A stretch of DNA of 64,000 nt from Alphaproteobacteria bacterium (GTDB lineage: Bacteria > Pseudomonadota > Alphaproteobacteria > Rs-D84): positions 5,649 to 69,648 of the forward strand of contig JAFGMC010000010.1 in NCBI GenBank assembly GCA_016927735.1, read 5' to 3'. Under the pieces are notes generated by a model. That model searched no databases. It was given only the letters and a program-made list of their open reading frames with translations, and was not told the DNA's origin. Each line of letters opens with the position of its first letter. Positions within the stretch are counted from its first letter, which is position 1. Position numbers and translations under genes: made by a program. Shown here in pieces: positions 29,075 through 44,546 of the stretch.

Positions 29075-29476
29075 ATGATCACATCATCATTATCGCTATC
29101 TAGAGAAAATATTATTAAAAAAGAAGATTATAATAATTATAATATTGGGACAGCTACGAATTTGAGTTCATATTATGGTTTATTTTTAGAAGATAATATT
29201 AAAAAATACGAACATGCTAATTTAACAATCGCAGAAATTGAGTATGAATTAAAAGAAAACCGAATCATTCCTTTAATTGAGTTAAGAAAATTTTCAAATC
29301 AACTTAAAGATGTTACTTTTATGAAAGTCTTTAGCAATATTAATGTATTTGATGGCGATTTTGTTGAAGGAGTCAGGAAACGTTATTATCTTTTAAGATT
29401 ATATAATAAAATAAAAAAACATGAAAAAAAGTTCAAAGGTTTAATGGCTATTACGAATTTACAACATGTTAATTAA
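29075..29476 (+). CDS. Hypothetical protein
   Basis: ATG 29075 preceded by strong AAGGAGGAG RBS. Confidence 0.65.
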   Translation: MITSSLSLSRENIIKKEDYNNYNIGTATNLSSYYGLFLEDNIKKYEHANLTIAEIEYELKENRIIPLIELRKFSNQLKDVTFMKVFSNINVFDGDFVEGVRKRYYLLRLYNKIKKHEKKFKGLMAITNLQHVN

Positions 29477-29503
29477 AAAATGCCCCATTTGGGGCATTTT
29501 TTT
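29475..29503. terminator. Bidirectional intrinsic terminator
   Basis: AAAAAATGCCCC-ATTT-GGGGCATTTTTT. Confidence 0.85.
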
Positions 29504-30023
29504 ATTTGCTTTTTAAAGTATCATTAACCCATTCATACAAACCCCAATTTTCTAACATTCCATATTTTATACCTTTACGTAAAAAACCTGCTTTTTCATA
29601 AATCTTACGTAGTGCATGTTTTCTATCTGCTGTATCTAATCTTAAAGTGTTAAAACCCTTTTTAATTGCACGTTTTTTTAAATTATCTAGAAATATTTCT
29701 GATATACCTTGTCCATGAAATTCATTTGCAACACAGAATTTATATATGTACATGGCTTTTTTATCTTTACCATCTGGCCATAAATTAACTTTATCACCTT
29801 TTTGAAATATAACAGCGCCTGTTGGCTTATCATCAACAAATAATACCAGGAATTCATGATTTTCTACTTTATACACACTTTTAAATCTTGCCATATTTAA
29901 ATTTTTTGACAACCAATCCCATGTTGGTTCTATATTATGTTCCAATTGCCATTTACTGTTATCCAACATAATTTTAATGGCCAGATCTGGATCATTTTTA
30001 AAAGTTATTTTTGTAAATTTCAT
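29502..30023 (-). CDS. GNAT-family N-acetyltransferase
   Basis: YIYKFCV...HGQGIS motif A, LRLDT, L.KIYEKAGF motif B. Confidence 0.88.
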   Translation of the reverse strand: MKFTKITFKNDPDLAIKIMLDNSKWQLEHNIEPTWDWLSKNLNMARFKSVYKVENHEFLVLFVDDKPTGAVIFQKGDKVNLWPDGKDKKAMYIYKFCVANEFHGQGISEIFLDNLKKRAIKKGFNTLRLDTADRKHALRKIYEKAGFLRKGIKYGMLENWGLYEWVNDTLKSK

Positions 30024-40619: not shown

Positions 40620-40760
40620 TTATTTTGGTTGATTTCCAAAATTAGGAGGAACTATCAATTTATGATTTTGTTCCACCATTGGCTCTGTTTCACAACTACA
40701 GCATGCCCCCAGCACAAGAACCAAAGAAAACAGTCCCACAATTAAATAAAATTTCTTCAT
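40620..40760 (-). CDS. Small lipoprotein, 46 aa (not in ORF track), DUF3035-like motif
   Basis: MKKFYLIVGLFSLVLVLGACCSCETEPMVEQNHKLIVPPNFGNQPK; AAAGGA RBS; lipobox LGAC. Confidence 0.75.
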   Translation of the reverse strand: MKKFYLIVGLFSLVLVLGACCSCETEPMVEQNHKLIVPPNFGNQPK

Positions 40761-40776
40761 AATAATATCCTTTCTT

Positions 40777-42519
40777 TTATTTAGGTATTTTAACAGATGT
40801 TTTCATTTGCTTTACAAATGAATCCAGACTGATAGTTTCTTGTTTTTCAACACCAAGTTTACGCAAAGTCACGGTCTTGTCTGCCATTTCTTTTTCACCA
40901 ACGACTGCAATAATTGGTGTTTTTGCCAATGACAATTCACGGATTTTATAGTTAACCTTTTCATCACGCATATCTGCACGTGTATAAACACCTGCTGCAC
41001 GTAAATCTTCAACAACTTGATTTGCATAGTCTTTAAATTTTTCTGAAATTGGTGTGACCACTACTGGTTCTGGGGATAACCACAATGGTAAATTACCACC
41101 AGTTGACTCCAACAAGATTCCCATAAATCTTTCAATACTGCCCAGCATTGCACGGTGCAGCATTATTGGACGATGTTTTTCACCATCTTCGCCAACATAT
41201 GACAAGTCAAATCGTTCTGGTAAATTCATATCCAGTTGTACAGTTCCACACTGCCATACACGTCCCATAGAATCTTTCAGATAATTATCAATCTTTGGAC
41301 CATAGAATGCGGCATCCCCCACAGCAACTTCATATTCAATACCATTCTTTTTTAATGCGTTATGTAATGCAGCTTCAGCCTTATCCCAAACATCATCATC
41401 ACCAATACGGAACTCTGATTCTTTTCTGGTCGCCAGTTTCATCGAAATTTTATCAAAGCCAAATTTGGAATAAATATCTTTGATAAAACGCAAAACCTTA
41501 ACTACTTCTTCTTCTAATTGATTTTCTGTACAGAAAATATGTGCATCATCCTGGGTAAATTCGCGAACACGCATCAAACCGGATAATCCACCAGCTGCTT
41601 CGTATCTGTTAACCTTACCAAATTCTGCCAAATACAATGGTAGGTCTTTGTATGATGTTATACCATGTCCAAATACCAACATACCACCTGGACAAGACAT
41701 AGGTTTGATACAAAAAGTTTTTCCATCTTGGGTTTTTCCGGAATAATTATGTTCACCATATTTTGCCCAATGACCAGAAATTTCCCATAACGATCTATCC
41801 ATAACTGACGGTGTAGAAATTTCTAAATAACCTGCTTGTTCTTGACGGAAACGAATATATTCTATCAAACGACGATATATTTTATACCCCTTATCATGCC
41901 AAAACACAGCGCCCGGTGCATATTCAGGTTCAAAGTGGAATAAATCCATATCGCGACCTAATTTTCTATTGTCTCTTGCGGCTGCCTCTTCCTGCATTTT
42001 TAAGAATTCTTCCAGCTCTGACTGGGTTGCAAATGCGTCAACATACACCCGTTGTAGCATTTTATTCCCAGAATCGCCCTTCCAGTAAGCCCCCGCAACA
42101 CTGCGGATTTTAAAGCTGTCACGTGGTAAATTCTTGGAAGTTTCAACATGTGGACCACGACATAAATCGGTAAAATCACGAAATATGAAAATTGATAAAT
42201 CATCACCTGATGCATCATACTCATTCAACCATTCCATTTTATATGGTTGATCTGCGAATAATTCTTTGGCTTCTGATAATGAAACATTTTTCTGTTCGAA
42301 TCTGCCATTTGATTTTATCAAATCGCGCATTTCTTTTTCGATCTTTGGGAAATCTTCTGGTGAAAATTTATATTCAGTATCAAAGTCGTAATAAAATCCG
42401 TTTTCAATCGCGGGTCCGCCAGCAAATTTAACATCTGGATAAAGTTTATTTATTGCCGCCGCCATAACATGCGCCAAGCTGTGACGAATTATTTCAATTG
42501 GATATTGCTTATCTGACAT
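40777..42519 (-). CDS. thrS: Threonine--tRNA ligase (lacks N-terminal TGS domain)
   Basis: RHSLAH, GFYYDF, DLCRGPH, RVREFTQDDAH, AFYGPK, HRAMLGSIERF. Confidence 0.97.
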   Translation of the reverse strand: MSDKQYPIEIIRHSLAHVMAAAINKLYPDVKFAGGPAIENGFYYDFDTEYKFSPEDFPKIEKEMRDLIKSNGRFEQKNVSLSEAKELFADQPYKMEWLNEYDASGDDLSIFIFRDFTDLCRGPHVETSKNLPRDSFKIRSVAGAYWKGDSGNKMLQRVYVDAFATQSELEEFLKMQEEAAARDNRKLGRDMDLFHFEPEYAPGAVFWHDKGYKIYRRLIEYIRFRQEQAGYLEISTPSVMDRSLWEISGHWAKYGEHNYSGKTQDGKTFCIKPMSCPGGMLVFGHGITSYKDLPLYLAEFGKVNRYEAAGGLSGLMRVREFTQDDAHIFCTENQLEEEVVKVLRFIKDIYSKFGFDKISMKLATRKESEFRIGDDDVWDKAEAALHNALKKNGIEYEVAVGDAAFYGPKIDNYLKDSMGRVWQCGTVQLDMNLPERFDLSYVGEDGEKHRPIMLHRAMLGSIERFMGILLESTGGNLPLWLSPEPVVVTPISEKFKDYANQVVEDLRAAGVYTRADMRDEKVNYKIRELSLAKTPIIAVVGEKEMADKTVTLRKLGVEKQETISLDSFVKQMKTSVKIPK

Positions 42520-42635: not shown

Positions 42636-42692
42636 TTATAACCCCAAAGGGGTTGTTGTAGTTGTTGTAAAGATTACAATTAAATGTTTCAT
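42636..42692 (-). CDS. Thr-rich leader peptide of thrS (MKHLIVIFTTTTTTPLGL)
   Basis: 18-codon ORF with six consecutive Thr codons (ACA ACA ACT ACA ACA ACC), ending about 115 nt upstream of thrS. Confidence 0.8.
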   Translation of the reverse strand: MKHLIVIFTTTTTTPLGL

Positions 42693-42763: not shown

Positions 42764-43396
42764 TCATAATGAATAATAACAATTGGGGTCATATTCAAAA
42801 ATACCAGATTCATCGTCACCCGATGATATATTACAACTAGTAATAGATGTACTTCCGGGCAAACTACTACCACCAGATGGACATATCGTACAAACAGTTC
42901 CATTCTTATAATAGCCAGAAATACAAAAAAATGTTGATGCATTACCACCTGGACAAGTTGCATTTGCTGGACATACTATACATCCACTGGTTCCAATTGA
43001 ATTACTTGTACCGTAATACCCAGCCGAACATCTATATGAATATGTGATATTACATGTATTACAAACACAGGTTTTATCTGTATATCTTTCATACCCTGCA
43101 TTATATGCCGTCCAACCTATATCTGTACAATTTGTACAACCAGTACAATTTTCTATACAATTGTATACATTAGAACAACCTAATCCTGAAATCAAAGTTT
43201 TTGTAAAACCTGACTGACAAGTATTACAAGTCTCATAAGATGTTCCACCACCATCACAAACCCATATGGCTGTTAAACAACCGTATACATATGCGAGTCC
43301 TCCACCTTCTGGAACACAGCTCATACAAGCGGCACCATAAGATTTATTAATTAATAAAAACAACATTAAAATAAATGTTACTAAAAAACTTTTCAT
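42764..43396 (-). CDS. Cys-rich secreted/surface protein with CxxC and C.AGYY repeats
   Basis: Signal peptide; about 23 Cys in 210 aa; CSAGYYG...GCIVCP, CISGYYK....CTICP, GSTSITSC resemble ephrin-receptor-like/GCC repeats; GGAGG RBS. Confidence 0.85.
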   Translation of the reverse strand: MKSFLVTFILMLFLLINKSYGAACMSCVPEGGGLAYVYGCLTAIWVCDGGGTSYETCNTCQSGFTKTLISGLGCSNVYNCIENCTGCTNCTDIGWTAYNAGYERYTDKTCVCNTCNITYSYRCSAGYYGTSNSIGTSGCIVCPANATCPGGNASTFFCISGYYKNGTVCTICPSGGSSLPGSTSITSCNISSGDDESGIFEYDPNCYYSL

Positions 43397-43416
43397 TTTT
43401 TCCTCCGGTTTTGATT

Positions 43417-43442
43417 AAAAAAACCACCAAAATTTTGGTGGT
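43417..43442 (-). terminator. Intrinsic terminator/attenuator just upstream of the Cys-rich gene RBS
   Basis: mRNA ACCACCAAAAUUUUGGUGGU followed by a U tract; overlaps the 3' end of the cloverleaf RNA. Confidence 0.75.
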
Positions 43443-43507
43443 CGGGAGGTTAGTAACAATCACATGAATTGCGCGCCATATTTGTATATTTTGACGCCCT
43501 CCCGACC
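43436..43507 (-). ncRNA. C4/CI-like antisense RNA (tRNA-sized cloverleaf ending ACCA)
   Basis: 10-bp closing stem GGUCGGGAGG/CCUCCCGACC, two internal hairpins, 3' ACCA; exposed CAUGUG and GUUACUAA complementary to targets at 43572-43589 and 43376-43384. Confidence 0.7.
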
Positions 43508-43528
43508 AAAAGTCGGAAGGTTTTTTCA

Positions 43529-43614
43529 TCGCAATAAAATACACTTGCCTTATAAACAGGTGTTTGCGACGCATGTGCGAGGTTACTAAGCCTCATTAGT
43601 GGAACTCCCACTAA
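43529..43614 (-). promoter_or_regulatory. Upstream target region (a1/b1-like) of the C4-like RNA with three hairpins
   Basis: Hairpins 43596-43614, 43579-43594 (loop CUUAGUAA) and 43529-43569; CACAUG at 43572-43577. Confidence 0.6.
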
Positions 43615-43715
43615 CAATTTGATTCTAGCTGTCGTATAGTTAAAACACCAGAAAAATATTTAAATAAAAACTTGTTATTGTAAACATGTACTGTTTCCTA
43701 TTAATAAATAAACAT

Positions 43716-43742
43716 AAAAAAACCGCCATTTCTGACGGTTTC
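43716..43742 (-). terminator. Intrinsic terminator downstream of the hemolysin III gene
   Basis: mRNA AAACCGUCA-GAAA-UGGCGGUUUUUUU. Confidence 0.75.
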
Positions 43743-43758
43743 TAAATATTAAAAATTA

Positions 43759-44505
43759 TCAAAAATAAACTATACTGCCAAACAGAACTGCAAAGAAAAA
43801 GCATACACTGCCGCCGATTACAAACAAGTGCCAAATCGCATGCGAATATTTCATCTTTCTCCACATATAGAATATAACACCCAAAGAGTATGAAAGTGCA
43901 CCAGACAATATAAACCATAAACCATGTTCTGGAACATTTTTAATCATTTCTGGCATTATGAACAAGACCGCCCAACCCATAAGCAAATAAAGTGCAACCA
44001 TCCATTTTGGTTGACGCTTTGGACTGCGAATTTTCATAATTGCACCAAAGATAACAATTGCCCACAATATTCCAAAAACTGTCCAACCCAAACCACCACG
44101 TAAATTTACCAACAAGAACGGTGTATAAGTTCCAGCAATCAAAGCATAAATTGCAACACTGTCCCAGACCTCGAAAAAACTCTCGCTCTTTTTACCAATC
44201 ATTGCATGACACATTGTGCTGCCGAAATACAAAGTGAACATTGTAAATCCAAATATAGCACATGATACAACTGCCCACGGATCACCCTTTAATGCTGCAA
44301 AAACAACCAACAATGTTAATCCGGCAATTGCCAAACCAATGCCAATACCATGTGTTAATATATTCATAATTTCTTCATGTTTTGTAGCTGGACGTTCCCA
44401 ACGAAACAGTCCTGTTGATTGTAAAAATCGCAGTAGACCAGAAGCCCTTGTATCTTTTTTAACAACCTTTAATTTTTCCCTGACAACTTTTTTCGATTTC
44501 ACCAT
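43759..44505 (-). CDS. Hemolysin III / PAQR-family (TrhA-like) membrane protein
   Basis: EEIMNILTHG, LIAGTYTP, LYLLMGW, HAIWHLFV. Confidence 0.92.
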   Translation of the reverse strand: MVKSKKVVREKLKVVKKDTRASGLLRFLQSTGLFRWERPATKHEEIMNILTHGIGIGLAIAGLTLLVVFAALKGDPWAVVSCAIFGFTMFTLYFGSTMCHAMIGKKSESFFEVWDSVAIYALIAGTYTPFLLVNLRGGLGWTVFGILWAIVIFGAIMKIRSPKRQPKWMVALYLLMGWAVLFIMPEMIKNVPEHGLWFILSGALSYSLGVIFYMWRKMKYSHAIWHLFVIGGSVCFFFAVLFGSIVYF

Positions 44506-44546
44506 TTTTCTACCTCTATCATTATTTATAAATAACAAACATATTT

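Follow-up and report, generated by a model that had tools for sequence, protein, structure and literature searches.

Background

Hartmann and colleagues are said to have described, in 1995, the c4 RNA as tRNA-like in shape, with an RCCA-type tail and a dependence on RNase P for its processing. The c4 of phages P1 and P7 (RF01695; c4-a1b1, PMC2864571) is, like the RNA considered here, a short structured RNA with two elements, a' and b', that complement sites in its own transcript, and it regulates ant through these complementary regions (bioRxiv 2020.03.17.996009). The CI RNA of satellite phage P4, too, derives from the leader of its target operon and is flanked on both sides by complementary sites; by pairing with seqA and seqC it brings about premature termination (PMC4825925, section 21). 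The isrK-orf45-anrP locus of Gifsy-1 (RF01394; STnc1160 downstream) likewise combines a leader RNA bearing complementary segments with a partly read-through terminator, and its read-through RNA is translationally silent by pairing in cis until it is activated in trans by its own short form (PMC4825925). A fourth small RNA (sRNA), sRNA-Xcc1, was first described from integron cassettes of Xanthomonas campestris; it lies upstream of symE in Xanthomonas integron cassettes (bioRxiv 2025.06.18.660453) and, in APSE phages, ahead of an ORF6N gene, and the cited passages present it as a trans-acting sRNA with unknown targets and describe no leader logic. Matches to sRNA-Xcc1, C4 and isrK are adjacent in a Xylella genome (PMC12189769, Table 4). 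Here we describe a locus of this kind in a 64,000-nucleotide (nt) stretch of an alphaproteobacterial genome (GCA_016927735.1, contig JAFGMC010000010.1, positions 5,649 to 69,648; hereafter the window), where a 72-nt tRNA-like RNA stands between a leader that carries its complements and a gene for a cysteine-rich, putatively secreted protein.

The locus is a real, conserved regulatory RNA cassette of the c4, CI, IsrK and sRNA-Xcc1 class, and not a new class. Judged by covariance-model scores and by the layout of its leader, it is a divergent branch of the sRNA-Xcc1 family, which itself appears to be c4-type because 16 bona fide sRNA-Xcc1 loci share the self-targeting leader logic. A type of RNA immunity module familiar from P1 and P4 is then found to reach beyond phages, and its divergent branch to serve as a general leader for envelope and secreted genes, including Cys-rich, YadA-anchor and PMP-type proteins and enzymes of capsule and lipopolysaccharide synthesis. 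The hosts are uncultured Alphaproteobacteria of the gut and the environment, whose genomes are very small and which carry up to 10 separately addressed copies per genome of about 1 Mb. Such cassettes constitute a natural set of orthogonal RNA address and target pairs, and offer a testable route into the control of the cell surface by little-known host-associated bacteria.

Anatomy of the cassette

The initial annotation, made from the sequence alone, had read seven elements into the minus strand between 43630 and 43376, and all seven are where it placed them. Together with the other features of the cassette they run, from 5' to 3' on that strand, as follows.

43629-43621, minus strand: candidate -10 element (TAGAAT within GCTAGAATC), from sequence
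43595-43615, minus strand: first leader hairpin (H0), in every leader fold, with an equivalent bearing compensatory changes in relatives
43594-43579, minus strand: leader hairpin GAGG-CTTAGTAA-CCTC, carrying target b1 in and beside its loop
43589-43582, minus strand: target b1 (TTAGTAAC), exact 8-nt complement of b'
43577-43572, minus strand: target a1 (CACATG), just 3' of the b1 hairpin, exact 6-nt complement of the a' loop
43527-43571, minus strand: middle leader hairpin, then an A/T-rich stretch, from folds
43512-43520, minus strand: anti-stem (CCTTCCGAC), pairing with 43507-43498, the closing stem's 5' strand
43507-43436, minus strand: 72-nt tRNA-like RNA, comprising a closing stem of 10 perfect bp, two arms (1 and 2), linker and ACCA
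43466-43461, minus strand: a' loop (CATGTG) of arm 2, complement of a1
43457-43450, minus strand: b' linker (GTTACTAA), complement of b1
43439-43436, minus strand: ACCA tail, 3' end of the 72-nt RNA
43443-43422 plus T-run (to 43415), minus strand: intrinsic terminator T2, called by the terminator scan
43406-43402, minus strand: Shine-Dalgarno sequence GGAGG, 5 nt 5' of the ATG at 43396
43384-43376, minus strand: downstream target b2 (TTAGTAACA), codons 5-7
42764-43396, minus strand: coding sequence, 210 amino acids, Cys-rich (23 Cys, 11%), N-terminus resembling a signal peptide, C-terminal motif conserved

Two of the labels given to these elements hold only in part. The putative -10 element is present, and its position agrees with a TATAAT-like box a few bases 5' of the first hairpin in 20 aligned relatives, but the promoter scan passed it over and proposed other candidates at 43704-43677 and 43684-43655. 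The 72-nt RNA has the closing stem and the ACCA expected of it and folds at -30.7 kcal/mol (z = -6.2, with none of 200 shuffles as good), yet the fold is a two-arm three-way junction rather than the four-armed cloverleaf first proposed. The competing hairpin at 43520-43498, in which the anti-stem captures the 5' strand of the closing stem, was confirmed as drawn. The 5' strand of T2 overlaps both the closing stem (by 3 nt) and the ACCA tail, and a fully formed closing stem leaves 5 bp of T2. By the count used in the analysis of start regions, b2 spans +12 to +19 relative to the start codon.

Against shuffled and reversed controls, the predicted anatomy is beyond chance. The closing-stem pattern occurs once in the window and in none of 100 shuffles. 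The composite target, TTAGTAAC followed within 1-25 nt by CACATG, is confined in the 764-kb genome to the leader of the window and, trivially, to the complement of the RNA gene, and the b2 word is found three times genome-wide, one of them in codons 5-7 behind the RNA, as against 27 occurrences of its reversed control.

In one DNA sequencing run (X1) the contigs fork within 43429-43471 of the window, where the RNA's 3' portion and the terminator lie. The second contig (786 nt, depth 16) has those 43 nt with three differences and then continues on the gene side into unrelated sequence, possibly that of a co-occurring strain or cassette in which another gene follows a similar RNA.

Family assignment and comparison with known systems

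At Rfam gathering scores the whole window yields only two tRNAs (22088, 28201) and no match at the locus, and a tRNA identity for the RNA itself was rejected, ARAGORN placing no gene in 43200-43800 and the Rfam tRNA matches lying only at those two positions. At permissive thresholds the only full-length Rfam match is sRNA-Xcc1 (RF02221), which aligns over model positions 1-87/87 with 36.3 bits (E = 1.1e-4), under the gathering score of 53 bits; a second copy in the same genome scores 38.3 bits. The window RNA has the overall fold of that family, namely a long closing stem, two inner hairpins and a single-stranded 3' linker. Among 101 related genomes, 40 have matches of this subthreshold type (32 of the 60 from the same family, with up to 8 per genome), whereas none of 14 control genomes has one, and among the RF02221 matches in those 101 genomes one alone passes the cut-off (58 bits). 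When 30 such matches were aligned, the consensus comprised 20 pairs, 19 of which show compensatory changes.

A covariance model built from this alignment (R1) finds three copies in the genome that carries the window: the window copy at 48.1 bits, and C10:8683-8765 and C13:11815-11903 at 53.1 bits each. Over an even sampling of the class, R1 has matches at E <= 1e-3 in 28 of 151 alphaproteobacterial genomes, or 27 of 150 if the unpublished genome G129 is left aside. On these matches, the cassette family occurs widely among relatives of Candidatus Enterousia (order Rs-D84) and in other Alphaproteobacteria. Bona fide sRNA-Xcc1 matches, at or above the cut-off, are found in 24 of 151 genomes sampled across the phylum. 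One further R1 match in the window, weak (E = 0.23) and at about 29438-29538, was dismissed as it sits on an ordinary terminator.

The RNA of the window has its closing stem, its two arms and its 3' linker in common with sRNA-Xcc1, and the likeness extends to the leader. In 16 bona fide sRNA-Xcc1 loci (58-76 bits) the longest complement of an RNA is on average 9.06 nt in the leader that belongs to it and 6.10 nt in non-own leaders, and the leader presents a hairpin with b1 and then a1, as it does in the window (8 nt and 6 nt); this leader-target feature emerged from the present analysis and is not a curated criterion of the family. By eye, b2 and a2 flank the Shine-Dalgarno sequence in about 11 of the 16. 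The self-targeting leader logic may be the reason why sRNA-Xcc1 is located directly upstream of symE or ORF6N. The window differs in its shorter arm 1 and in its strong terminator, which overlaps the closing stem, whereas several bona fide loci have no terminator before the gene; it also lacks a2, places b2 within the coding region, and carries a Cys-rich secreted cargo amid housekeeping genes.

Like c4, the RNA of the window has a' and b' elements that complement upstream a1 and b1 in the same transcript. Unlike c4, it does not stand before an antirepressor in a phage immunity region: its neighbours are hlyIII, gltX and thrS, the downstream gene is neither icd/ant nor an antirepressor, no prophage surrounds it, b2 alone is present downstream, and it belongs to a cassette family with many private copies per genome. 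The contrast with P4 CI lies in the missing strict leader terminator and in P4-like genes, which are not present. In isrK the acting RNA is a part of the leader and activates a phage antiterminator cascade, whereas the cargo of the window is a surface protein. The architecture proposed in the initial annotation, in which a' and b' of a P1 c4/P4 CI-type RNA complement sites both upstream and downstream, stands; its further suggestion of repurposed phage logic is overstated, because the family is widespread on alphaproteobacterial chromosomes and bona fide sRNA-Xcc1 shares the leader logic. Among the titles and abstracts searched, none describes cassettes of this sort ahead of surface-protein genes in Enterousia or Rs-D84, and in an mSphere paper on these bacteria the words 'sRNA', 'surface' and 'cysteine' do not occur.

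Covariation of loops and targets

Sixty cassettes were aligned to R1, with a' taken as the loop of arm 2 and b' as the 3' linker; removal of four with duplicate loops and one with a truncated leader left 55 non-redundant cassettes. Their loops differ from one cassette to the next, yet each RNA tends to be matched by its own leader. A complement of a' of at least 7 nt (a1) is present in the own leader of 44 of the 55, against 7.3% of non-own pairs of RNA and leader, and for b' (b1) the figure is 49 of 55 against 13.5%; the a1 of the window is 6 nt long. The geometry is constant as well, b1 lying about 11 nt 5' of a1 and usually in the loop of a GGGR...YCCC hairpin. The predicted covariation between loops and targets is thereby borne out, as is the existence of paralogous cassettes with differing loops, with three in this genome and up to 10 in one relative. 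Here the three cassettes have three distinct loop pairs, each of which fits its own leader (the third by way of one G-U pair). In four genomes with 3, 4, 8 and 10 cassettes the best match is usually the own leader, a' being especially private. Cross-regulation between the cassettes of one genome was accordingly rejected, these within-genome matrices favouring the own leader, and mutually exclusive expression through cross-talk, which the initial annotation had raised, is unsupported because each RNA best matches its own leader.

Downstream of the RNA the signal is smaller. A b2 of at least 7 nt is found in 19 of the 55 cassettes (10.4% of non-own pairs), and 17 of these 19 sites, that of the window included, overlap the region from -20 to +20 of the start codon. 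In the window b2 amounts to 9 nt in codons 5-7, and no a2 longer than 5 nt was found.

These pairings bear on a purely cis-acting leader, a module for termination, antitermination and processing in which the contest between anti-stem and tRNA-like fold would set read-through of T2, RNase P would trim the messenger RNA, and the freed RNA would be inert in trans. All complementary partners do lie within one transcript, folding predicts that they pair in cis, the composite target exists nowhere else in the genome, and the overlap between T2 and the closing stem is systematic. Such a reading nevertheless leaves the kissing-loop geometry, with b1 in one hairpin loop and a' in another, without explanation, as it does the leaderless tandem arrays of tRNA-like units described next; the related phage RNAs act in trans, and the privacy of loops within a genome suggests selection against cross-talk, which is relevant only if the RNA diffuses. 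We consider an exclusively cis-acting leader improbable.

One locus (L184, G059:C1:278997-279668) consists of three to four tRNA-like units arranged head to tail at a spacing of about 100 nt. No unit is accompanied by a leader that matches it, and two have an identical b'. The array resembles the tandem sRNA-Xcc1 arrays reported in Xylella.

Alternative folds and mode of action

The anti-stem, like the loops, is specific to its cassette: 35 of 59 cassettes have an own anti-stem of at least 6 nt, against 10.5% for leaders of other stem types, and the predicted anti-stem covaries with the 5' strand of the closing stem. Strict criteria identify T2 in 34 of 54 cassettes, where 0.3 would be expected; its 5' strand overlaps the closing stem by at least 2 nt in 32 of the 34, and the fully formed closing stem leaves at most 5 bp of T2 in 24. 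Minimum-energy folds were computed for 54 predicted primary transcripts, each comprising the leader, the RNA and the start of T2. In 53 of these a' and b' are paired in cis with the leader, the anti-stem is formed in 49, and the closing stem is formed in none. The predicted 202-nt precursor of the window takes this closed fold at -80.5 kcal/mol (z = -7.4), while the 95-nt local context of the RNA takes the tRNA-like fold, and in a fold that extends into the beginning of the gene codons 5-7 become the cis partner of b'. A strict, T1-like leader terminator occurs in 12 of 54 cassettes (0.8 expected), mostly in the long type of Enterousia. The tail that follows the closing stem is RCC in 38 of 60 cassettes and ACCA in the window copy, and the genome encodes a type A RNase P RNA (212.9 bits); these tails and rnpB are features compatible with a 5' end made by RNase P.

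On balance, we regard the RNA as probably a private, self-addressed repressor of its own cassette, in the manner of c4 and CI. A single predicted transcription unit, starting at about 43,620-43,680, would comprise the leader, the 72-nt RNA, T2 and the Cys-rich gene, and its transcript could adopt two mutually exclusive predicted folds. In the closed fold, a1:a' and b1:b' would pair in cis, the anti-stem would sequester the closing stem's 5' strand and T2 would keep its full length. The open, tRNA-like fold, of the kind that RNase P needs as a substrate, would take 3 bp from T2. RNA freed from terminated or processed transcripts would accumulate, as suggested by P1 c4 and P4 CI, and would pair in trans with transcripts of its own cassette only, both in the leader and around the translation start. 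Such pairing would keep the surface-protein gene off, and its expression would call for both a shortage of the RNA and read-through of T2, with the leader sites acting as a decoy in cis, in competition with the start region for a' and b'. The several cassettes of a genome would work independently because the loops are private to each.

A number of results weigh against repression of this kind. In the lowest-energy precursor a' and b' are masked, and therefore an active free RNA needs refolding or removal of the leader; T2 is strong, and therefore expression of the gene requires read-through. The enrichment of b2 is modest, with many of the b2 sites being A-rich words that would also suit Lys-rich gene starts, and a2 is not enriched at all (4 of 55 cassettes against 5.9%). 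The window copy has no strict terminator between a1 and the RNA; leader termination in the style of P4 was rejected for this copy, as it cannot be invoked where the strict leader terminator is missing. A search with the C4 model, suggested by the initial annotation, gave no match among those listed at E <= 10 in 43200-43800 (in the whole genome the sole C4 match, at 14.3 bits and E = 2.6, lies elsewhere). The c4-a1b1 model, whose presence under that name is unverified, is likewise absent among the 10 matches listed at E <= 10, and isrK (RF01394) is not among the permissive Rfam matches to the locus. Finally, a gene for Hfq was not found in the genome, which is about 90% complete.

The same folds could serve an activating, IsrK-like switch, in which free RNA would occupy the leader sites in trans, the tRNA-like fold would form and weaken T2, and the gene would be turned on. 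By default the closed fold would prevail, with a stop at full-strength T2 or with silencing by b' on codons 5-7, and the arrangement would amount to positive feedback and could be bistable. A closed fold in 53 of 54 cassettes, a tRNA-like fold that would leave at most 5 bp of T2 in 24 of 34, the cis pairing of b' with b2 in the full-length fold of the window, and a leader terminator able to release a short IsrK-like RNA in 12 of 54 cassettes all agree with such a switch, as does the silent read-through RNA of Gifsy-1 isrK, which is activated in trans (PMC4825925). However, the activator in IsrK is a leader-type RNA and not the C4-like RNA, C4-like RNAs of known function (c4, CI) are repressors, and the concentration of b2 over start regions (17 of 19) points to occlusion of the ribosome site; moreover, the window copy is without a strict leader terminator, and the isrK model has no match to it. 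We hold activation to be doubtful, with self-addressed repression the preferred account.

A bolder proposal would make each cassette an RNA-only, self-addressed bistable switch between a closed precursor and an open, tRNA-like form that would act back on its own leader, turning surface genes on and off stochastically and independently of one another. This seems to us a long shot; if true, it would represent RNA-based phase variation in a 0.76-Mb genome, with a module of phage immunity as the building block in mutually orthogonal copies.

Downstream genes

Fifty downstream open reading frames (ORFs) were analysed, eight of the 58 called having been dropped as duplicates or tiny spurious frames, and on their composition and domains the cargo of the cassettes is predicted to be mostly envelope or secreted proteins. 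At least 5% Cys is found in 21 of the 50 proteins, every one with a hydrophobic N-terminus. A crude signal-peptide test flagged 44 of the 50, HTH proteins among them, and that count was not used. Pfam matches comprise HTH_3 (3), Stealth (2), PAP2 (2), YadA_anchor (2), DUF1796 (2) and Ephrin_rec_like (2), together with glycosyltransferases, Chlam_PMP and others.

The 210-residue product of the window is Cys-rich, as first noted, with its 23 Cys and signal-peptide-like N-terminus. It belongs to no Pfam or PHROG family; a word-based search found eight relatives, and its atlas matches, at scores no higher than 0.83 to Ephrin_rec_like and VSP-like clusters, are leads only. A C-terminal Cys-aromatic-aromatic motif is common to the window protein and 10 of the 50 downstream proteins.

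Across the Cys-rich proteins behind cassettes this motif (42764-42810 in the window) consists of a Gly/Ser-rich segment and aromatic residues, then Cys-Tyr/Phe-Tyr/Trp in the last 14 residues. It may be a sorting signal of the Cys-rich cargo.

The position of the cassette near thrS is shared with other genomes. Across 80 thrS loci of relatives, R1 identifies 24 cassettes in 21 loci, 10 of them upstream of thrS on the same strand, as in the window, and 14 downstream. Behind the 10 syntenic cassettes lie Cys-rich secreted proteins or members of a family of 310-360 amino acids, two of which match DUF1796.

Links to phages

The second cassette of the genome (L001, G000:C10:7183-10265) lies between a gene for a type I restriction-like helicase and a terminase fragment, and precedes a gene for a 105-residue lipoprotein. 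A viral contig from IMG/VR (L149) has a near-identical backbone with different loops and leader targets; its loops fit its own leader targets, a similar lipoprotein gene adjoins it, and the contig encodes a large terminase (3.7e-110) and a ParB-methyltransferase. Two stem patterns, a pattern-limited look and not a census, picked out 46 loci on viral contigs, of which two (L149 and L160) are true R1 matches; the other 44 were rejected as chance inverted repeats.

A terminase fragment beside the second copy, and the near match of that copy's backbone to the phage-like L149 with its large terminase (3.7e-110), would suit the idea that the window locus is the decayed relic of a phage or mobile element, now without function. 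In the window every element is intact, however, and no phage gene adjoins the cassette, placed as it is between hlyIII/gltX and thrS; the initial annotation had likewise seen no prophage around it. Complementarity is kept across 55 cassettes despite their divergence in sequence, and cassettes with intact genes behind them stand upstream of thrS in 10 of 80 loci of relatives. A relic of decayed antirepressor loci in particular, the outcome that the initial annotation had set against its own proposal, does not apply because antirepressor-type domains (Ant, KilA-N, BRO, ORF6N) were found by Pfam in none of the 50 downstream genes. A relic without present function is highly improbable.

Organism and genomic setting

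The genome with the window comprises 764 kb in 14 contigs and is about 90% complete. Its threonyl-tRNA synthetase is 81-87% identical to proteins from metagenome-assembled genomes (MAGs) titled Candidatus Enterousia sp., uncultured Alphaproteobacteria or Rickettsiales, and these MAGs come mostly from animal and human gut. Enterousia is placed in the uncultured order Rs-D84, all members of which have reduced genomes (PMC12306168). The stretch itself was found in DNA runs labelled as freshwater and sediment metagenomes. No RNA run was listed for it, and the one RNA run belonging to that study gave 0 contigs, a result that speaks neither for nor against expression.

On the minus strand, which carries the cassette, the upstream neighbours are hlyIII (43759-44538) and gltX, and thrS (40777-42519) follows downstream. 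Terminators of its own flank the locus at 43743-43718 and 42758-42729, the latter (minus strand) closing the transcription unit.

Directly 3' of thrS, at 40620-40760 on the minus strand, is an ORF of 46 amino acids with a lipoprotein-type signal (…LVLGAC). Relatives often have a second cassette directly 3' of thrS, and none was found at 40620-40760 in the window.

Just 5' of thrS, an 18-codon ORF (42636-42692, minus strand) encodes MKHLIVIFTTTTTTPLGL, with six Thr codons in a row. It ends in a CCCC-TTT-GGGG hairpin, and relatives carry the same run of Thr in their own thrS leaders; the ORF is a putative threonine-sensing leader peptide for thrS.

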